A stretch of 64,000 bases of DNA, taken from NCBI GenBank assembly GCA_038868975.1, contig JAWCSA010000002.1, positions 8,059 to 72,058 of the forward strand. Direction: 5' to 3'. The notes beneath the pieces were generated by a model. That model did not search any database. It had not been told where the DNA came from and saw only the letters and a program-made list of their open reading frames with translations. Each line of letters starts with the position of its first letter. The first letter of the stretch is position 1. The translations under genes and the position numbers were made by a program. Below, one piece after another: positions 38,471 to 48,361 of this stretch. The DNA comes from Nitrososphaerales archaeon. GTDB lineage: Archaea; Thermoproteota; Nitrososphaeria; Nitrososphaerales; UBA213.

Positions 38471-38932
38471 TTACTGATAAATAAGTTCTTCAACCTTCAA
38501 TATCCTAGCGCAGTATCTGCAGTTAAGGATTGGTTTGGATTTGTCTATAACATCTATTACGGGTTTGATCTCTTCCTTGCTGTTTGTTACGCATAGTGGG
38601 TTTGAACATTTGAAAATGTCTACGAACGCGTCTGGAAGTTCCACCTTCCTCTTTTCCACTACTTTGTAATCTCTTATTATGTTAATAGTGGCCTTGGGCG
38701 CCAACAGCGCAAGTTTGTTGGTCTCCTCAGGCTCAAGGAAACGGTTCTCGACTTTTATTATATCCTTGGTCTCGAGCTTACTACTTGGTACATTCAAGGC
38801 TACAGTTACAACATTTCCCTCCCTACCCGTGATATTGAGAGCCCGGAGAACCACAAGAGCCATGCCTGGATCAATGTGGTCGATAACTGTACCATCCTTT
38901 ATTCTTCGAACGAGAAGCTGAGCTTCCGACAT
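38471..38932 (-). CDS. pyrI: Aspartate carbamoyltransferase regulatory subunit
   Basis: IKDGTVIDHI N-terminal block and a C-terminal zinc domain CSNPLC...CRYC. The start at MSEAQLL (38932) is preferred over 38965. Confidence 0.8.
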   Translation of the reverse strand: MSEAQLLVRRIKDGTVIDHIDPGMALVVLRALNITGREGNVVTVALNVPSSKLETKDIIKVENRFLEPEETNKLALLAPKATINIIRDYKVVEKRKVELPDAFVDIFKCSNPLCVTNSKEEIKPVIDVIDKSKPILNCRYCARILKVEELIYQ

Positions 38933-38974
38933 GAGAATACTTTGTATATGTCTGTTTATAACCATATTGTGATA

Positions 38975-39910
38975 ATGAAGAACAACCTATACGGTAGGGA
39001 TATAGTTTCAATAAAAGAGTTCAGCAGAGACGATCTGGAGTTTCTGTTTAAATCAACGGAGAAATTAAGCGATATGCAGCAGAGCGAAAAAAGAGAACTC
39101 GCTAGAGGAAGAATACTTGGATATCTTTTCTTTGAGCCTAGCACGCGAACAAGACTCAGCTTCGAAGCCGCTATGGCAACCATAGGTGGCAGTTCTATGG
39201 GTATTGCTGACGCTAGATCATCTTCACTGGAAAAAGGGGAAAGTTTAGCTGATACGGTTAGAGTGATCGATCAGTATTCAGATGTTATAGTGTTGAGAAA
39301 CCAGCTGGACGGCTCAAGCAGGTTTGCGGCAGAGGTTGCAGAGAAGCCCGTAATAAATGCTGGAAGTGGTACTGAAGAGCATCCAACACAGGCGATGCTT
39401 GACCTTTATACAATTTGGAAGGAAAAGAGAAGGATAGATGGATTACGTATAGGAATTGTTGGCGATCTAAAGTATGGAAGAACTGTATATTCGCTAATTT
39501 ATGGTTTGACAAATTACAGCGCTCAAATACATTTGATCGCTCCACCATTGCTCAAGATAAGAAAGGAATCGATTTTCAATGTGGAAAAGAAGATCAAGAT
39601 ATATGAACATGAAGCGATTGATGATGTAATTAAGGATCTTGATGTTTTGTATGTCACAAGGATACAGAGAGAAAGGTTTCCTGATGTGCAGGAGTATGAA
39701 AAAGTGAAGGGAAGTTATGTTATAAATTCAAAAATACTGGAAAATGCTAAGAGTGATGTTATCGTAATGCACCCATTACCAAGGCTTGATGAAATAAGTC
39801 ATGACGTTGATAATAAACCAAATGCGAAGTATTTCGAGCAAGTGTCGTATGGAAAGAACCTCAGGGCCACGCTGCTTGCCATGGTTCTAAACGAGGAGTT
39901 GGACTGGTAA
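38975..39910 (+). CDS. pyrB: Aspartate carbamoyltransferase catalytic subunit
   Basis: STRTRLSFE, HPTQ and HPLPR motifs. The start at MKNNLYGRDI is preferred because the longer track ORF overlaps pyrI. Confidence 0.85.
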   Translation: MKNNLYGRDIVSIKEFSRDDLEFLFKSTEKLSDMQQSEKRELARGRILGYLFFEPSTRTRLSFEAAMATIGGSSMGIADARSSSLEKGESLADTVRVIDQYSDVIVLRNQLDGSSRFAAEVAEKPVINAGSGTEEHPTQAMLDLYTIWKEKRRIDGLRIGIVGDLKYGRTVYSLIYGLTNYSAQIHLIAPPLLKIRKESIFNVEKKIKIYEHEAIDDVIKDLDVLYVTRIQRERFPDVQEYEKVKGSYVINSKILENAKSDVIVMHPLPRLDEISHDVDNKPNAKYFEQVSYGKNLRATLLAMVLNEELDW

Positions 39911-39973: not shown

Positions 39974-42637
39974 TCAGCCTGAGACGCAGCTGCTCCAGCC
40001 GCACTCGATGCAGCAGTTGCATCCTTCTATGTATGCAATTTTACCATTGCATATAGGACATGGTTCCTCTTCATCCTTGTGTGGAACCATTTGCTTTGCA
40101 TAAGTATGACCATTCTTCGGTTTGAGTATCTTCTCAACCTCCGAATGTACAAACTTGTCCTTTACGTTGTTCATTATATAATCAACTACGTAATCGCTTG
40201 GAAGCACTTCAAAGTTCTTTTCTTTAGAGTCGCTTGTTATATGCAATACCTGTTGATGTCTTGAACCATCTCTGTACACAGTTACACCCTTGAGACCAAG
40301 CTCGTGTGCTAGTAGGTACGAACATTTTACGTCCTCTGCTGTAACATCATTTGGCATGTTTATCGTCTTTGCAATTGCATTTGTTATCCATTGCTGCCAT
40401 ACTGCCTGCGCCATCAGATGGTCTGCCCAGTGGATGTCCATTGCAGTAACGAAGACCCTCTGCATCCATTCAGGTATGCCGTCAAGATGACGTATAGATC
40501 CGTAGTTGTCCGATATTTTCTCCAAAAGTTCGTCACTATACAGACCATTCTCTTTCAGCACTTCATCGAATATCTTGTTTGTGTAGAAGAACCTTCCTAC
40601 AGTTACCCTCTTCTCGAATACGAGAGCAAATATTGGTTCTACACCGTTGGAGCAATCCGCAATCATAGATAGCGTTCCAGTTGGAGCAATTGTGGTTGTC
40701 TGCGAGTTCCTTATGCCAAAGCGCATTATCTTATCGATCAGCGAGTCCCAGTCATAGGAATGCTTGCTCTTTGGAAGCTCGTAGTATCCTGCAATAGGCA
40801 ATTTTCCATATACATAATCTGAATCATTAAACATTGGAAATGCTCCGCGCGTCCTTGCGAGCTCAACACTTTCTTCCATGCTATAATATGTCAAGGCTTC
40901 TGCTAGCTTTGACATCAGTTCATAGCCTTCCCTAGAGCTATATGGGATCTTTAGTTTGAAAAGAAGGTCTGCAAGTCCCATTATGCCCAAACCTATCCTC
41001 CTTGAAAGCTTGGAGGCAATATCGATCTCCGCTACTGGATACTTGTTTGCATCGATAACATTGTCAAGGAATCTGGTGGTTAATCTTATTATCTGCTCGT
41101 ATCGCTGCCAATCAAATTCAAACTCTCCATCGGCTCTGCGTTTTACAAGGTTTGCAAGGTTGATGGAGCCCAGATTGCATGACTCGTATGGATACAGGCT
41201 CTGTTCGCCACATGGATTTGTAGCCCTGATAAATCCTTGGGCTCTCTTCATGACGTTGTACCTATTCATGTTGTCGAAGAACAAAACGCCTGGCTCTGCG
41301 CTCTTCCATGCACTAAGAGCGATAAGGTCAATTAGCTGATTTGCATCTATATGCTTAACAATTGCCCCTGTTCTTGGATTTCTTAACGGATACTTGGACC
41401 TGTTCTTAATAGCATCCCAAAAGTCTTCCCATATGCCTACACTTACATTGAAGTTCTCAAACACCCCGGGTGTGGTCTTGGCAGTTACGAACCTTTCCAC
41501 ATCGGGGTGCCAAACCTCTAGGATGCCCATGTTTGCTCCTCTCCTCTTCCCGCCTTGTTTAACCACATCTGTTACCGTATCGATGATACGCATGAAGGAT
41601 GTTGGTCCTGATGCAACGCCAGATGTAGATGCCACCATATCGCCTTCAGGTCTCAGGTCGGAGTAGTTAATACCAACACCCCCACCAGATTTGAAGATGA
41701 GCGCAGCATCTGTAGACGACTTCATGATATGGTACATGTCGTCCTTCATATCCAGAACGAAACAGGCTGAGAGCTGCCCTAGCCTTGCGCCTGCATTCAT
41801 TAACGTTGGTGAATTGGGTAAGAAGTTTCCTTGAACCATTAGATCCTTGTATTCATCTACACGCTTCGCATATTCATCGAACTTTCCCTCTCCTAGCATC
41901 TGCAATAATTCAGTTGCAGTTACCTTCATCTGACCCTGTCCTGACAGATCCTTATAGATCGTCAGCATGGTTTCGACATGCCATTTGTTCAAAACATATG
42001 ATCCAATCTTGTATTTTTTGTCGAATTCATCTATACGTTGCATGTATTCTGTTATCTCTTCTATGTTCTGTTTCACACCAGCCTTAAGACCAAATATTCT
42101 AGCATCCCGCATCAGGTCTGGTATAGTAATTGTTATTGCAATGCGTTCGAAGAGCTCCTTAGGGCTTTCAATTATCTTTCCATTGGCATCCCTTAACAGG
42201 TACCTAGACGCAAGCACACGCAACGAGTTGACGCTGAAAGCCTTGTCAACGTCGTCAAATGAGGTGCGCTCTAGGATCTTCATCTTCTCCTCTCTTATCT
42301 TGCGCCTCTCGTGCCGGTACAAAATATAGGACTTGGCTGTTTCGGAAAGACCCTCTTCTATAAGCACAGACTCGACGATATCCTGTACGTCCTCTACACT
42401 TGGCACAACGTTTTCATCATATCCCTGCTTCACAAGTCTCTGCACAACTTTAGCAGCCAATCTATCCGCCAACGGATAGTCAGCCCTCTTCGTGGCTACA
42501 AGAGCTTTATAGATCGCGTTAGAAATCTTCGAACTTTGAAAGTCTACGACTCGGCCATCACGCTTTCTTATCTTGCTGATTACTGTAGTTAAATCTGAAT
42601 TAAACACATCGGTCGTCAGTTCCCGCCATCCCCTCAT
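39974..42637 (-). CDS. nrdJ: Class II (adenosylcobalamin-dependent) ribonucleotide reductase with N-terminal ATP-cone and C-terminal Cys-rich tail
   Basis: ATP-cone KIRKRDGRVVDFQSSKISNAIYKAL, active-site block ATNPCGEQSLYPYESCNLGSINL, and tail CPICNG..CNCCIECG. Confidence 0.85.
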   Translation of the reverse strand: MRGWRELTTDVFNSDLTTVISKIRKRDGRVVDFQSSKISNAIYKALVATKRADYPLADRLAAKVVQRLVKQGYDENVVPSVEDVQDIVESVLIEEGLSETAKSYILYRHERRKIREEKMKILERTSFDDVDKAFSVNSLRVLASRYLLRDANGKIIESPKELFERIAITITIPDLMRDARIFGLKAGVKQNIEEITEYMQRIDEFDKKYKIGSYVLNKWHVETMLTIYKDLSGQGQMKVTATELLQMLGEGKFDEYAKRVDEYKDLMVQGNFLPNSPTLMNAGARLGQLSACFVLDMKDDMYHIMKSSTDAALIFKSGGGVGINYSDLRPEGDMVASTSGVASGPTSFMRIIDTVTDVVKQGGKRRGANMGILEVWHPDVERFVTAKTTPGVFENFNVSVGIWEDFWDAIKNRSKYPLRNPRTGAIVKHIDANQLIDLIALSAWKSAEPGVLFFDNMNRYNVMKRAQGFIRATNPCGEQSLYPYESCNLGSINLANLVKRRADGEFEFDWQRYEQIIRLTTRFLDNVIDANKYPVAEIDIASKLSRRIGLGIMGLADLLFKLKIPYSSREGYELMSKLAEALTYYSMEESVELARTRGAFPMFNDSDYVYGKLPIAGYYELPKSKHSYDWDSLIDKIMRFGIRNSQTTTIAPTGTLSMIADCSNGVEPIFALVFEKRVTVGRFFYTNKIFDEVLKENGLYSDELLEKISDNYGSIRHLDGIPEWMQRVFVTAMDIHWADHLMAQAVWQQWITNAIAKTINMPNDVTAEDVKCSYLLAHELGLKGVTVYRDGSRHQQVLHITSDSKEKNFEVLPSDYVVDYIMNNVKDKFVHSEVEKILKPKNGHTYAKQMVPHKDEEEPCPICNGKIAYIEGCNCCIECGWSSCVSG

Positions 42638-42691
42638 ACATATGAGAGAGCGTATAGTTAAGTCTTGCTAAGATTGTGTGTACTCTCATGG

Positions 42692-42710
42692 GTTAACAAA
42701 ATTTGTTTTC
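42692..42710. promoter_or_regulatory. Imperfect palindrome GTTAACAAAATTTGTTTTC in the nrdJ upstream region (candidate operator)
   Basis: The core AACAAA-a-TTTGTT is a perfect 6+1+6 palindrome, 55 to 73 nt upstream of the nrdJ ATG. It lies just downstream of a TATA-like TTTTTATTTA (minus strand, about 42720..42730). Confidence 0.3.
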
Positions 42711-42935
42711 GTGTAGTAAATAAAAATTTTACCGCACCTCCAGACGAATGATTTCGTCAGTTCTACAAATAACAGTATGGTCTGGTGAATGATGGAGATG
42801 AGTAATAGAACTTGAAGCTAAGCATTTACAAACAATATTACAATTAGCATAGAATTATCGTTAAATGAGCACATGTTTTCAGGACTAAATGTAGAAATAC
42901 AGAATAAAGAAGTAATTGTTTAATTTTGTTTTGTT

Positions 42936-45041
42936 TTATTGTGTTTGCAACATGTGTGGTGATTTACATGCAATACACTTGTCAACAGCTTCCATGCTCT
43001 TCTGACCACAGTTGCTGCAAACGTAAACCTTCGTCCTTGGTCTGAAAAATGCCAGCATATCTGCTGCACTTTCTATTGCCGTTTTTACATATGTGTTATT
43101 CATCGATGTGTCTATGTCCATGGTTACAGAAAGACCTCCATTAAGCAGTTTTTCCATTGCGTCGCATTCCTTTATTACCTCTGCGTCCTTCTTCATCGTG
43201 ATAATATCAGCTGCTGGTATGAACACTCCCTGTGAATAGAGGTTATCAATGTTAGTCTGCAATGTCTTACCGTACTTTTCCGTATCTAGAGCGGCAAATC
43301 TTGCAGCGCTGTCATCTATAATCATCGATATGCCCACCTCGTCACTGCCCTGCTTTCCCTTTTCAGTTGCAACGTCAACTGCTGTCTTGATAACCTTCTG
43401 CACCACCTCCAGACAACTATTGCTATCCTCGTAACCTAAGACGTTTGCAACCGATTCGTGTAAACCAACCAAGTTTACAAGCAAGTTAGCACTTCCCCTC
43501 TGCATGAACTGTGTTGTGTGTGCAAGCGTCGGCATCAGTCCCTTCCTTGTCATATCAGTAATTGTCTTCTTGCGCATAGAAAGTGCAGATACAGCTGGTT
43601 TAATCAAAAGAGCAAGCCTTGCCCTAAAATAGGTTTCGTCCTTGTTCGATTCATAAGCTAACCTTGGAAGGTTTATGGCTAGCGATTGTAACGACATTAC
43701 AGTACTTGATGTATGGCCGTTGAGGCTTTTTGATACGCCGATAAGGCTCCTAACTTGTTTTGGATCGCTCAGCAAACTAATCAATCCTCCGTTCCTAACT
43801 ATGCTAGAAACCCTATCTATGTAGTCATTTACAGCACCATTGCTGAAGGAAAGTCCGAGCCCGATTCGTGGTATAGGGGTCGAGTGTAGATACATTTCAT
43901 AACCCTTCAAAAGCGCATCTACCTGCTTCTTGTCTGCACCATCTAGAGCGATGCTCAGCGATGTAACTGGAAAAGTCTGGTTGTACGATGGGGCTCCAGA
44001 AGAGACCATGAGTGCCTTGGCAAACCTGTTAGATAATGAAGCATCGGTACTGCATCTTTGTAACAGGGGTATTATACCATCTATCAGTACCTCAGAGGAG
44101 GCCTCTCTGCTTAACATCTGGTTCAAGAGGGCAATGGAAGTGCAAAAGTCATCCACGTTCTTGATGGGACCTAACCTAGAAACACCCAAGAACTTGCCCT
44201 TCAGGTTTACTCCTTCTTCCGGCAGTTCGTTAATATCCATGAAGATTGCATCTGGTACCAGTTCCCAAATTCCGGGGTTTGAAATGTGTATATCGCCTGC
44301 AAGATGCTGATCTGCTATATCCTTTGGTAATGTATTGAAAACCAAGTATTCGGACAGTAAATTCTGCGCTGTTTTCACAAGTAAACTTTCTATTCCGTTT
44401 CTTACCTCTTCAACGTTATTCATCATCTCCGCAACATCAAAAACAGGCATGCCTATACGGGCAAGTTTATTTCTATACTCTTCGTGTCCATGCTCTATCA
44501 AAACAGCATTAACAATCTCCCTTATTAGAGGAGCAGTCAGGTACGCTGTTTGGAACTTGTAGATCTTGTTCTCAACCTCTTCAGTTATCTTCTGTGCCAG
44601 TTCCAGTGGCACGTTTGCCTCCCTAACCAATGACTGTATTATCTTATGAGAATTGAATTCTTCTATAGATTGGTTAGTGGTTCTGACATACATCTTTCCG
44701 CTCTCGATTATTGAGCGTTCTTCAATCTGCCTCGCAAGGCTCAACACCAACTTTCCAAGATTAGTTATTGTGTAACGTCTCTCTGCCTTGTTCAGGGCAA
44801 CAAGAGATTGACGAAGCAACTTGCGCAGGTGATATGCGAATTTCCCACTTTCCTTCTTTGACTTGAAGCCTGCTAGTGCTTTAAGCTCCGAATAAGTCAA
44901 GGGGCCCTTTGAGTTCAATATACGCAAAATATCTATCCTGTTAGGGCTTGCCATCACAGAGAATATCATACGAACACGTTTCGAAGCTGAATAAAGGACG
45001 TCGCTCTTCTTAGATTCCACAAAATCACTACTCAATTCCAT
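42936..45041 (-). CDS. wHTH (ArsR-like) + ATP-cone + class III RNR (NrdD)-like protein lacking a glycyl-radical C-terminus
   Basis: wHTH: PNRIDILRILNSKGPLTYSELKALAG...RRYTITNLGKLV. ATP-cone: MYVRTTNQSIEEFNSHKIIQSLVRE. NrdD-like blocks: HLAGDIHISNPG, SLAINLPRLAYES, ARFAALDTEKYG, YSQGVFIP, NGGLSVTMDI. The zinc ribbon is CSNCG-x10-CIAC, and the ORF ends 8 aa later. Confidence 0.65.
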   Translation of the reverse strand: MELSSDFVESKKSDVLYSASKRVRMIFSVMASPNRIDILRILNSKGPLTYSELKALAGFKSKKESGKFAYHLRKLLRQSLVALNKAERRYTITNLGKLVLSLARQIEERSIIESGKMYVRTTNQSIEEFNSHKIIQSLVREANVPLELAQKITEEVENKIYKFQTAYLTAPLIREIVNAVLIEHGHEEYRNKLARIGMPVFDVAEMMNNVEEVRNGIESLLVKTAQNLLSEYLVFNTLPKDIADQHLAGDIHISNPGIWELVPDAIFMDINELPEEGVNLKGKFLGVSRLGPIKNVDDFCTSIALLNQMLSREASSEVLIDGIIPLLQRCSTDASLSNRFAKALMVSSGAPSYNQTFPVTSLSIALDGADKKQVDALLKGYEMYLHSTPIPRIGLGLSFSNGAVNDYIDRVSSIVRNGGLISLLSDPKQVRSLIGVSKSLNGHTSSTVMSLQSLAINLPRLAYESNKDETYFRARLALLIKPAVSALSMRKKTITDMTRKGLMPTLAHTTQFMQRGSANLLVNLVGLHESVANVLGYEDSNSCLEVVQKVIKTAVDVATEKGKQGSDEVGISMIIDDSAARFAALDTEKYGKTLQTNIDNLYSQGVFIPAADIITMKKDAEVIKECDAMEKLLNGGLSVTMDIDTSMNNTYVKTAIESAADMLAFFRPRTKVYVCSNCGQKSMEAVDKCIACKSPHMLQTQ

Positions 45042-45305
45042 TTAACCTCTCTACTAATTTTGTTTGATTAAAGTAACTTTGTAAAAAATCTTTGCTATTT
45101 TGGACAATAAGTTTGATGTGTTCGTAACGTGCGCTACCATCCTATACATGCTGTTACAGTAAACTAGGCATTTACAACCAGTTTCTGCAGCTTAACATGG
45201 CGAATTTGCAGCCCTAGCGCTCTACAATGATGTTGGTAGCTTCTTCCAGTATCTCCATAGCATCATCTTTAATACGGGAAACATGACCTTGTTCTTTGAT
45301 GTCAT

Positions 45306-45327
45306 ATGTTGACAAATTTGTCAACAT
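45306..45327. promoter_or_regulatory. Perfect 22-bp palindrome ATGTTGACAAATTTGTCAACAT
   Basis: Read directly from the sequence; it is its own reverse complement. Further GTTGACA/TGTCAAC half-sites lie at 45524..45530 and 45619..45625. Confidence 0.5.
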
Positions 45328-45713
45328 GCGTGCGATATGCAAATACCGCCTTGATCGACGGTGTAACCTATCAACGGTCCTGCATCACTTTCCTAAGATC
45401 CGTTACTGACGAACAAAGGCAACTGAAAAATTGATTGCAATCGGTTATTATACCTATTCACGCTACAATCGGTTCAAAGGTCATTTTCAGATCCACGGCT
45501 AACTTGTAGACACTGCTGTTAACTGTCAACTTTGCCAGCATTTGCATGTAATTCCTTATTACTGAAAACATCTATCACTATCCGTTCCTGCACCCTCTTC
45601 TCAACTGTATGCAGTCTGGTTGACAGGTAAGTCTTGAAACCGTTGTGAAGAGAAGGGGAGTGCGATGGTCAATTTAGATGCACAAGCAACTGTGCTACAG
45701 TTTATCAATCTCA

Positions 45714-45875
45714 TTAGATCCGGTTAACGGAGACGCTGAAGTCCGTTGCCGACAGAACTTGGCCGCATGATGGGCATTTGTTGTTAGTAGGTCTAAGCAC
45801 GTCCTTGACTGGTTTGAGAATCCTCATTGTATAGATGATAGAGCCGCACTTACCACAAGTCACCTCTACAGACAC
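45714..45875 (-). CDS. 53-aa zinc-ribbon protein (CxxC...CxxC), GTG start
   Basis: Below the ORF-track cut-off. Sequence VSVEVTCGKCGSIIYTMRILKPVKDVLRPTNNKCPSCGQVLSATDFSVSVNRI. A TTTTATAA box lies about 25 nt upstream on the minus strand. Confidence 0.4.
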   Translation of the reverse strand: MSVEVTCGKCGSIIYTMRILKPVKDVLRPTNNKCPSCGQVLSATDFSVSVNRI

Positions 45876-46829: not shown

Positions 46830-47195
46830 TTACTTATCCAATGATAGTATGATGCCCCTTTCGTCGTAGCCGACTATCTTTACCCTCGCGTTTATCGGTA
46901 AATTCTTTGGTGAATCAATTCCAGGCAAGAATCCAGAGATATTGAAGCCAGCATCCAATTTCATAACTACCCAAGCGTATGGCTTGTACTTTTCATATTC
47001 TTCAGGAGCAACGTTCTGTATGGTGTATGTTGCGACCTTACCTTTCCCATCCACTTGAACACTTTCCAGATCTTGAGAATTGCACTTGATACAGTAGATC
47101 GTTGTTGCTAACTGCAAGTTACCACATTTCTTGCATTTGTATGCTAAAACTTTACCATTCTTCAGCACTGTAAGGAACTGTTCCCTGCTGATCAA
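46830..47195 (-). CDS. DUF35 OB-fold / zinc-ribbon protein (thiolase-associated scaffold)
   Basis: CKKCGN...CIKC zinc ribbon followed by an OB-fold-like segment. It lies 2 bp downstream of the thiolase gene. Confidence 0.75.
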   Translation of the reverse strand: MISREQFLTVLKNGKVLAYKCKKCGNLQLATTIYCIKCNSQDLESVQVDGKGKVATYTIQNVAPEEYEKYKPYAWVVMKLDAGFNISGFLPGIDSPKNLPINARVKIVGYDERGIILSLDK

Positions 47196-47197
47196 TG

Positions 47198-48361
47198 CTA
47201 AACCCTTCTAAAGATGTGCACAGCACAGCTGGCGCCTGTTGCGCCAAAGTTATGTGTCATGCCAATTTCTGCATCTTTCACCTGTCGTTGACCAGCTCTT
47301 CCAAGCAATTGTTCATATGCCTCAACTACCTGTCCAATACCTGTTGCACCAATAGGATGTCCTTTTGATTTCAAACCGCCGGATGGATTGATTGTAACTT
47401 CGCCCTGATTTAATCTAGTTAAACCTTCTCTAACAGCCATGGCAGCCATTCCTTTGTCAAAGAATCCTAGATCTTCTATGTCAATCATCTCAGCAATCGT
47501 AAAGCAATCATGCACCTCTGCAAAGTCGATATCTTTCGGCGTTAGGTTAGCCTGTTTGTATGCCTGCTGGGCTGCAGCTCTCGTGCTAGGAATTGTTGTG
47601 GGGTCTTCTCTTCCCTGCACAGCAGCTGGGGATGCACCCCTTCCAGATCCAATTACTTCGATGTAATCTGCGTTGTGCTTCTTGGCAAATTCTTCCGTGC
47701 AAAGTATAACTGCGCTGGCACCATCAGAAAACGGACAGCAGTCAAGGAACTTTAAGGGGCTTGCTACCAAAGGAGATTTCATTACATCTTCAACTGTGAT
47801 CTTTTTCTGTACATGTGCTTTAGGATTTAGAATGCCATGCTCGTGGTTCTTTACTGCCACCATCGCCAGATCCTCTTCTGTTGCCTTGTACCTTGTTAAG
47901 TATGCTCTTGCAATTGAAGCAAACAATCCTGGGAATGATGCACCATTCCCGCCTTCATACAAAAAGTCCGAGCAGTATGAAAATAATGTAGTTGATCTTC
48001 CGGTTCCAGTGTGAGTTACCTTTTCAACACCGACAGCTAGAACCGCATCATAAAATCCGGCTGCAACATTAGCATATGCTTCCCTGAACGCAATTGATCC
48101 GCTACCACATGCAGATTCTATCGTTAAACCTGGAACGTGTGGTATTCCCAGATTACTCATTATAACAGGAGCCAGGTGCACCTGATTATCTGCCACACCG
48201 AAAACGTTCGAGATAAAACCATATTGAATATCCTTTGGATCCATCTTTGCACTCTTGATAGCGTCATTGGCAGCGCTTATTGCAAGTTCAACCACGCTTT
48301 CCTTCAACTTGCCATACTTGGTGCTACCAGCACCGATAACACAGACTTTGTTCACTACCAA
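47198..48361 (-). CDS. Thiolase (acetyl-CoA acetyltransferase)-like protein
   Basis: Active-site Cys in IESACGSGS, plus C-terminal GHPIGATG and NFGATGASCAVH. Confidence 0.8.
   Translation of the reverse strand: MVVNKVCVIGAGSTKYGKLKESVVELAISAANDAIKSAKMDPKDIQYGFISNVFGVADNQVHLAPVIMSNLGIPHVPGLTIESACGSGSIAFREAYANVAAGFYDAVLAVGVEKVTHTGTGRSTTLFSYCSDFLYEGGNGASFPGLFASIARAYLTRYKATEEDLAMVAVKNHEHGILNPKAHVQKKITVEDVMKSPLVASPLKFLDCCPFSDGASAVILCTEEFAKKHNADYIEVIGSGRGASPAAVQGREDPTTIPSTRAAAQQAYKQANLTPKDIDFAEVHDCFTIAEMIDIEDLGFFDKGMAAMAVREGLTRLNQGEVTINPSGGLKSKGHPIGATGIGQVVEAYEQLLGRAGQRQVKDAEIGMTHNFGATGASCAVHIFRRV

Follow-up and report, generated by a model that had tools for sequence, protein, structure and literature searches.

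Ribonucleotide reductase (RNR) is essential and tightly regulated, and in bacteria its master transcriptional regulator is NrdR. NrdR is found with RNR genes whatever their class, in many cases controls its own gene, and oligomerizes in a nucleotide-dependent manner (PMC9110341, PMC12176259). It is rare in archaea (PMC9110341), with 6 archaeal versus 1268 bacterial entries (PMC2795772), so that the regulatory niche is open there. Another described system close to the present subject is the class III RNR, NrdD. Its thiyl Cys sits in a finger-loop motif MGCR or MCCR and its beta-A Cys is 92.6% conserved (PMC9669993), an NxN flap after the ATP-cone closes the active site and the radical loop carries a Gly-Tyr pair (PMC11226230). 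Here we analyze a 64,000-nt stretch of a Nitrososphaerales archaeon (GenBank assembly GCA_038868975.1, contig JAWCSA010000002.1, positions 8,059 to 72,058; the whole stretch is called the window, and coordinates refer to it), and in it a gene whose 701-aa product joins an ArsR-like winged helix-turn-helix (wHTH), an ATP-cone, an NrdD-like body and a C-terminal zinc ribbon (Table 1). The next gene downstream is nrdJ, which encodes a B12-dependent class II RNR.

An earlier annotation by a model, made from the letters of the window without database searches (the original prediction), had proposed that this protein is a nucleotide-sensing regulator of deoxynucleoside triphosphate (dNTP) supply and an analogue of NrdR. 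Our results speak for that proposal: the family is conserved, its wHTH is the most constrained domain and its position upstream of RNR genes has been kept. We consider it probable, at roughly 0.6, that this non-catalytic NrdD paralogue senses nucleotides, binds DNA and thereby regulates RNR expression, with nrdJ as the target here, and that it resembles NrdR in function while lying outside the NrdR family.

Domain architecture and the radical residues

Pfam matches the N-terminus to DUF7347 (residues 26-100, E 4.4e-10) and, above its cut-off, to HTH_20 (residues 30-82, E 6.5e-8), the next segment to ATP-cone PF03477 (residues 117-189, E 8.9e-11, 42.6 bits against a cut-off of 25.8) and the body to NRDD PF13597 (E 1.8e-24). 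The best NRDD stretch pairs residues 444-694 with profile positions 272-529 of 562 and therefore does not reach the glycyl-radical end. An AlphaFold2 (AF2) model built from 98 diverse sequences has a pLDDT of 84.6 and a pTM of 0.72; an input of 26 close homologues gave an unusable model (pLDDT 52.6), and the 98-sequence alignment was used instead. In the model, helices at residues 33-45, 50-56 and 62-77 and strands at 81-84 and 89-92 form the H-H-H-beta-beta topology of a winged-helix fold. The recognition helix (approximately residues 62-77, SGKFAYHLRKLLRQ) and the beta-wing (81-92) carry the basic residues K67, H71, R73, K74, R77, K85, R88 and R89. The body is a true NrdD homologue across the whole barrel: the top 36 matches of a Foldseek fold search with the AF2 model were all class III RNRs (TM ∼0.5-0.65), and the family profile of 98 sequences matched solved NrdDs in the PDB at E 4.7e-37 to 1.4e-31. 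The winged helix, the ATP-cone behind it, the NrdD-like body and the NrdD-type ribbon (C675, C678, C689 and C692) that the original prediction had read from the letters are all borne out. An N-terminus other than a DNA-binding fold, which would have spoken against the prediction, is not what we found, since both Pfam and AF2 give a winged helix.

We compared the body with E. coli NrdD (L006), in which C175, M382, C384, G681 and the ribbon cysteines were verified, and with intact archaeal NrdDs from related loci. Column counts refer to 98 sequences, 51 from ammonia-oxidizing archaea (AOA) and 47 from a second tier of TACK/Asgard-type homologues described below. At the thiyl column (E. coli C384) the window protein has Val436, and Val (29) or Ile (20) stands there in 49/51 AOA proteins; the preceding Gly (E. 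coli G383, G435 in the window) is present in 51/51. There is no Cys anywhere in residues 393-457, the stretch spanning the finger-loop region, so that the loss of the thiyl Cys holds in whatever register the sequences are aligned, and the alignments do differ in this respect. The beta-A column (E. coli C175) holds Ala265 in the window protein, Thr, Ser or Ala in 51/51 AOA proteins and Cys in 0/98 sequences. E. coli and Bathyarchaeal NrdD have the NxN flap as ENAN; the window protein and the second tier align with a gap at this site. The tail columns beyond the ribbon are empty in 51/51 AOA proteins, and the window open reading frame (ORF) ends nine residues past its last Cys, a distance originally counted as eight. 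The RFxxLD, YS and NGG motifs, the barrel and the ribbon are conserved, and the NLPR motif is kept in at least 95/98 sequences at each position.

Neither a split glycyl-radical tail nor an NrdG-like ORF was found in the window: every tblastn match had E > 0.05 or was the ribbon, and CxxxCxxC occurs just twice, both times in a stop-to-stop segment that corresponds to no plausible gene. A tblastn search with E. coli NrdG, of low sensitivity and covering loci rather than whole genomes, found no nrdG in the window or in ∼85 AOA loci. Judged by its residues, the NrdD-like body is catalytically dead, every feature of the radical chemistry having been lost. The original prediction fares well on these points: the glycyl-radical motif is missing after the ribbon, no nrdG was found in the window, and in place of an intact thiyl Cys with a glycyl-radical domain, in frame or split, there are Val436 and no tail. 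The database label "anaerobic ribonucleoside-triphosphate reductase" is wrong for the AOA proteins. Taken at face value, it credits obligate aerobes with making dNTPs anaerobically and can mislead metabolic reconstructions based on metagenomes.

Family extent, conservation and genomic neighborhood

The gene is not a decaying pseudogene but a member of a large conserved family. All proteins returned by a first homology search were full-length, came from Nitrososphaerales and had the four Pfam domains of the window protein; among representatives clustered at 50% identity, an exhaustive search found 1114 matches, 173 of them below 1e-30. By a pattern scan of one genome per species, relatives occur in at least 572 species genomes, those listed being full-length. 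The best 80 of these at least 572 genomes all belong to ammonia-oxidizing Nitrososphaerota and include Nitrososphaeraceae, Nitrosopumilaceae, Nitrosotalea, Nitrosarchaeum, Nitrosotenuis and Nitrosopolaris; cultivated Nitrosopumilus strains are among the carriers.

The second tier consists of proteins of ∼740-800 aa from Bathyarchaeia, Lokiarchaeia/Promethearchaeota, Freyarchaeota, Jordarchaeum, Methanomethylicota and Hecatellales, with stronger NRDD Pfam scores (up to 303 bits). They keep ∼40 residues past the ribbon that resemble the radical tail (SR-x-S-A-K-Y-LPL..W), in which the Arg is present in 47/47 and the Tyr in 39/47. The radical Gly is kept in 8/47 and replaced in 39/47, mostly by Ala, Ser or Thr; the beta-A Cys is absent in 47/47, and a Cys stands at the thiyl position in 5/47. 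The representative search also contained a third tier of ∼530-600 aa with a wHTH and an ATP-cone and without the zinc ribbon (P0225, P0230, P0235, P0236, P0238, P0244, P0245). P0225, the one scanned, has no Pfam NRDD match, and the tier looks like a further-reduced form of the family.

Conservation is graded along the protein. Mean identity to the window protein, given for Nitrosopumilaceae and then for TACK/Asgard homologues, is 97% and 37% in the wHTH, 100% and 28% in the connector helix, 82% and 58% in the ATP-cone, 57% and 31% in the NrdD N-terminal region, 43% and 19% in the barrel, and 38% and 21% in the ribbon. Across AOA families the wHTH is 97-99%, the connector 99.8-100%, the cone 82-89% and the barrel 43-60% identical, and the ATP-cone is the best-conserved domain against TACK/Asgard homologues. 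Invariant in all 98 sequences are G66, F68, Y70 and H71 of the recognition helix and R120, F129, E141, R174, R190 and R195 of the cone. The family is under strong purifying selection, greatest on the wHTH. With the barrel least and the wHTH most conserved, this is the reverse of the pattern expected for an enzyme.

In the loci surveyed, nrdJ lies directly downstream of the candidate regulator, on the same strand, in 72 AOA loci, with spacers of ∼60-900 nt. The tandem with nrdJ at a distance of 298 nt that the original prediction noted in the window is such a case; the shared strand stands, with the correction that it is the minus strand. The window NrdJ is complete, scores 747 bits against TIGR02504 (cut-off 400) and has its own ATP-cone (E 1.6e-22), as had been stated. 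The homologue lies upstream of an NRDD gene lacking the HTH in 6/8 sampled second-tier (Bathyarchaeia-type) loci. A glutaredoxin- or thioredoxin-like gene stands beside the downstream nrdD in some second-tier loci, and in L174 an Ldh-family gene lies between the homologue and nrdD. In each of the six downstream nrdDs the beta-A Cys is in place (PFCQ), the finger loop has a double Cys and reads QCCR or QCCAYC, and both the ribbon and a canonical tail (WSR[VI]TGYYQ..GWNxGK) are present. Since the partner is a class III nrdD in the anaerobes and a class II nrdJ in AOA, the slot changed its RNR class while the candidate regulator gene stayed, and this refilling with the pairing kept argues for selection on the linkage. 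The conserved placement upstream of two RNR classes is the strongest functional evidence that we have.

Several neighboring genes are also shared. A divergent pyrI/pyrB pair (aspartate carbamoyltransferase; window 38471-39910 and loci L001, L088, L090 and L171-L174, with pyrB alone seen in L173) comes directly after the RNR gene, which is nrdJ in AOA and nrdD in Bathyarchaeia-type genomes; pyrB/pyrI beside RNR is an old linkage of purine/pyrimidine-precursor and dNTP-synthesis genes. Upstream of the candidate regulator is a thiolase and OB-fold (ChsH2-like) pair (46830-48361, minus), found likewise at Loki and Methanomethylicota homologues (L087, L089), a synteny that spans TACK and Asgard archaea. 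Loci of the window's clade, and many of the Nitrosopumilaceae, keep an ORF of 53 aa with a double-CxxC zinc ribbon (…CGKCG…NNKCPSCGQ…; 45714-45875, minus) directly upstream of the regulator locus. The C-terminus of NrdJ (39974-40080, minus) is a Cys-rich tail, CPICNGKIAYIEGCNCCIECGWSSC, which resembles the folded zinc-finger domain of long class II C-termini (PMC9669993).

Table 1. Coordinates of the features discussed (window positions)
Feature	Coordinates	Strand	Basis or remarks
wHTH + ATP-cone + pseudo-NrdD + Zn-ribbon gene	42936..45041	minus	701-aa ORF, Pfam, PDB profile match, AF2 model
Winged helix-turn-helix, residues 26-100	44742..44966	minus	DUF7347, HTH_20, AF2 topology
Long connector helix between wHTH and ATP-cone, residues 101-116	44694..44741	minus	AF2 helix 94-114
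ATP-cone, residues 117-193	44463..44693	minus	PF03477
Class III RNR-like body, residues 194-660, barrel without radical residues	43062..44462	minus	PF13597, PDB profile, fold search
Gly435-Val436, remnant of finger-loop G-C(thiyl) pair	43734..43739	minus	column alignment to E. coli G383/C384
Zn-ribbon C675-x2-C678-x10-C689-x2-C692	42966..43019	minus	four Cys, 98/98 sequences
nrdJ, B12-dependent class II RNR, presumed target	39974..42637	minus	887 aa, TIGR02504, Pfam ATP-cone + lgN + lgC
Spacer from candidate regulator to nrdJ, holding the nrdJ promoter	42638..42935	minus	298 nt, 31% GC
BRE/TATA-like AGCAAGACTTAACTATA, in nrdJ spacer	42653-42669		sequence, clade footprint
CATGAGA, in nrdJ spacer	42684-42690		clade footprint
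AACAAATTTTGTTAAC, in nrdJ spacer	42692-42707		candidate element
Palindrome GACGAAATCATTCGTC, in nrdJ spacer	42743-42758		candidate element
Own promoter and 5' untranslated region of candidate regulator, ∼85 nt, …TTTTTTACAAAGTTACTTTAATCAAACAAAATTAGTAGAGAGGTTAA-ATG	45042..45126	minus	alignment of seven loci, window's clade

Promoters, spacers and the search for an operator

As originally described, the DNA downstream of the candidate regulator is AT-rich and noncoding (Table 1). In the seven loci of the window's clade the spacer before nrdJ has three conserved blocks, CTTTTTTGAC, CATGAGA and a BRE/TATA-like (B recognition element and TATA box) AGCAAGRCTTAACTATA; CTTTTTTGAC is possibly the terminator of the upstream gene. 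The spacer measures 84-104 nt in the six closest relatives, and the ∼200 extra nt of the window have no Rfam match or significant fold. A B12 riboswitch or other structured RNA in the 298-nt spacer was considered and rejected (no Rfam match at E ≤ 1, fold z-score −0.09).

A composite block, made up of a short palindrome and then GGTGTnAA-N5-TTGAn, is common to the nrdJ promoters of Nitrosopumilaceae and lies ∼100 nt ahead of the start codon. A position weight matrix (PWM) of this block recovers held-out Nitrosopumilaceae promoters (p ≤ 0.002), and the block is nearly unique to the nrdJ spacer: of the 71 matches that score 13 bits or more across 1.36 Mb, 56 fall there. Another three strong matches (L017, L056, L063) lie just past the stop codon of the candidate regulator, where the nrdJ start is unmapped or mis-called. 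The window's AACAAATTTTGTTAAC was rejected as the counterpart of the Nitrosopumilaceae GGTGTCAACAAAATTGA (PWM −4.6 bits, p ∼0.52).

Upstream of the candidate regulator, the last ∼85 nt before its ATG are far better conserved than the flanking DNA in the seven loci of the window's clade, and a related block, TTTACAAAGTAGTTTTAATCA, occurs throughout Nitrososphaeraceae in the gene's own promoter region. The loci of the anaerobes have common TTATACAGAATT-type elements upstream of the nrdD operon. We set aside a CTGATC signal upstream of the candidate regulator, which is mostly the conserved 3' end of a neighboring small ORF, and, as an operator, the 22-bp perfect palindrome ATGTTGACAAATTTGTCAACAT (45306-45327), which is absent from all six relatives and lies inside a frameshifted gene remnant. 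The relatives L091, L007 and L093 carry an intact gene of 188-211 aa, of which this remnant (45190-45626, minus) is a decayed copy. Three different reading frames are needed to match the window DNA to the intact gene, which means at least two frameshifts, with ATGTTGACAAATTTGTCAACAT at one frame junction; the copy could be a pseudogene or an assembly error of the metagenome-assembled genome. In the Nitrososphaeraceae locus L002, the ORF that occupies this place just upstream of the candidate regulator matches Snf7 weakly in Pfam. Arrays of AAAAATGATCTAA-type repeats at ∼20-25 nt spacing lie upstream of the candidate regulator in some Nitrosopumilaceae (L063, L064, L067, L079).

Readings of the locus and comparison with known systems

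As a regulator, the protein would work as follows. The NrdD-like body would dimerize in the manner of NrdD, and the ATP-cone, by its domain homology and conservation, would bind ATP or dATP. Nucleotide-dependent repositioning of the cone, relayed through the invariant connector helix, would alter the presentation of the two winged helices and thereby change DNA binding near the nrdJ promoter and probably also near the gene's own promoter. Such a regulator would have been built independently of NrdR, from an RNR scaffold and an ArsR-like wHTH.

A number of observations weigh against this reading. No operator common to Nitrosopumilaceae and to Nitrososphaeraceae with the window's clade was found by PWM, k-mers or core counts: the Nitrosopumilaceae PWM fails to transfer to Nitrososphaeraceae or to the window's clade, unbiased k-mer enrichment for an AOA-wide operator yields T-runs only, and the ACA[AG]AATT core of the anaerobes' TTATACAGAATT is as frequent in AOA promoters (5/50) as in controls (40/451; p = 0.47). 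That no shared operator was found for a near-invariant wHTH is mild evidence against the simplest model, and the conserved promoter blocks could be mere promoter or terminator elements. RNR adjacency is missing despite room downstream in L002-L005 (one Nitrososphaeraceae clade), L008, L009 and possibly L051, and missing also in the Loki and Methanomethylicota loci. NrdJ carries its own ATP-cone, so that a second activity sensor is not needed. Single-sequence PDB searches with the wHTH and with the cone gave nothing significant (wHTH against ArsR, SmtB and MarR, E 0.07-0.95), and the N-terminal motif of the cone is VRTT in the window protein rather than the known KR(D/N)G, which leaves nucleotide binding uncertain. 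Other explanations stay in play on account of the missing operator and the exceptionally high conservation of the wHTH.

One of these, which we regard as unlikely, is that the protein, as a non-catalytic subunit of RNR type, acts by protein contact to regulate or chaperone the real reductase or another enzyme of dNTP metabolism, with the wHTH as an interaction or oligomerization module. The 97-100% identity of the wHTH and connector across families exceeds that of a typical transcription-factor DNA-binding domain and suggests several constrained surfaces, which together with the failure to find a shared operator would fit such a subunit, and the paralogous NrdD that is its partner in the anaerobes could conceivably form heterodimers with it. 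The AOA neighbor, however, is a class II NrdJ, ill-suited to a class III-type dimer and already in possession of an ATP-cone, yet the gene and its wHTH persist there; moreover, the recognition helix and wing are basic, as in DNA-binding ArsR-type domains (Pfam HTH_20, HTH_5). It is also rather improbable that a nucleotide-sensing DNA-binding protein has its main target elsewhere than in RNR transcription, for example at a replication origin, in cell-cycle control or in a broader nucleotide-metabolism regulon including pyrBI, with nrdJ adjacency as inherited synteny. The thiolase-OB, candidate regulator, RNR and pyrB-pyrI block is syntenic from AOA to Bathyarchaeia and partly in Loki and Methanomethylicota, so that adjacency may partly reflect ancestry and not selection, and some clades keep the gene without RNR adjacency. 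Such a target fits less well with an RNR slot that took in another RNR class without the pairing being lost, and an ATP-cone with an RNR-derived body points specifically to the sensing of ATP/dATP and dNTPs.

We consider it very improbable that the protein has remained an enzyme, be it a class III RNR supplied with its radical by an activase and a glycyl-radical "spare part" from separate genes, or a barrel performing other nucleotide chemistry. Apart from the database label of an anaerobic RNR, what speaks for it is the conservation of the barrel, the NLPR, RFxxLD, YS and NGG motifs and the ribbon, and the Gly at the radical position (8/47) and Cys at the thiyl position (5/47) of some second-tier proteins. 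Against this, the window protein has no finger-loop Cys, beta-A Cys, NxN flap or tail, neither a split tail nor an NrdG-like ORF was seen in the window or in the ∼85 AOA loci (nrdG searched by low-sensitivity tblastn), and its barrel is the least conserved part. The NCBIfam NrdD equivalog gives the 701-aa protein 73 bits, far under the cut-off of 326. In addition, AOA are aerobes. Oxygen destroys glycyl radicals (PMC2795772). We favor a regulator of RNR expression over these alternatives on account of its persistence beside the non-paralogous NrdJ, its basic recognition helix and wing, and the conservation gradient.

A more far-reaching form of the regulator reading, which we put forward tentatively and hold to be rather unlikely, is that the whole allosteric apparatus of RNR has been reused as the sensor of a transcription factor. 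The cone would read the ATP/dATP ratio and the specificity site at the dimer interface of the dead body would read dNTP balance, so that both the size and the composition of the pool would set RNR expression. The protein would then be an archaeal counterpart of NrdR, ancestral to TACK and Asgard archaea, whose role was kept through the replacement of class III by class II in AOA.

In the full-text literature searched, whose coverage leaves out most subscription journals, we found no description of the family or its architecture, no paper naming DUF7347 and no account of the control of RNR transcription in archaea. The family is a concrete, testable candidate for such control, and its carriers are apparently most AOA, which are globally important nitrifiers, as well as Bathyarchaeia, Methanomethylicota and Asgard archaea. 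The family would illustrate clearly how a radical enzyme can turn into a pseudoenzyme sensor fused to a DNA-binding domain.

An ATP-cone with a DNA-binding domain controlling RNR genes is already known from NrdR; the architecture, the origin and the lineage are new. Like NrdR, the AOA protein couples an ATP-cone to a DNA-binding domain and is associated with RNR genes irrespective of class, and the conserved promoter of its own gene is compatible with NrdR-style autoregulation. The DNA-binding modules differ, being an N-terminal ArsR-like wHTH in the AOA protein and, in NrdR (∼150 aa), an N-terminal Zn ribbon followed by the ATP-cone; the sole ribbon of the AOA protein stands at the C-terminus and corresponds by homology to the structural one in NrdD. 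The cone of NrdR binds ATP or dATP and governs oligomerization and DNA binding. At 701 aa it has a complete dead class III body and originates as an NrdD paralogue, and no NrdR model in Pfam or NCBIfam matches it. NrdR binds paired boxes in RNR promoters; the RNR promoters of AOA and the anaerobes show lineage-specific conserved blocks, and no NrdR-box-like operator was found.

With NrdD the AOA protein shares the ATP-cone, the fold of a ten-stranded alpha/beta barrel, the C-terminal structural Zn ribbon and the NLPR, RFxxLD and NGG motifs. It differs in lacking the radical tail, the thiyl Cys (MGCR/MCCR replaced by G-V), the beta-A Cys and the NxN flap, in its extra wHTH, and in its occurrence in obligate aerobes, with nrdG not detected in the sampled loci. 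Its second-tier homologues have the same three-domain architecture, the invariant recognition-helix residues, no beta-A Cys and, in most of the sampled loci, the position upstream of RNR and pyrB/pyrI, but they keep the ∼40-residue tail and are partnered by an intact nrdD, with or without glutaredoxin or thioredoxin, rather than by nrdJ.

The wHTH resembles ArsR/SmtB in its winged-helix fold with a basic recognition helix. ArsR/SmtB proteins are stand-alone metal-sensing dimers of ∼100-120 aa, whereas the AOA wHTH is fused to a 600-aa body and reaches 23.7 bits against the NCBIfam model HTH_metalloreg NF033788 (cut-off 55). In trigger enzymes and pseudoenzyme sensors such as PutA, BirA and NadR, an enzyme fold senses a ligand for a DNA-binding regulator of its own pathway, and most of these are still active. 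The AOA protein is like them in the use of an enzyme fold as the putative ligand-sensing module and unlike them in that its radical chemistry is wholly lost and its scaffold is an RNR.

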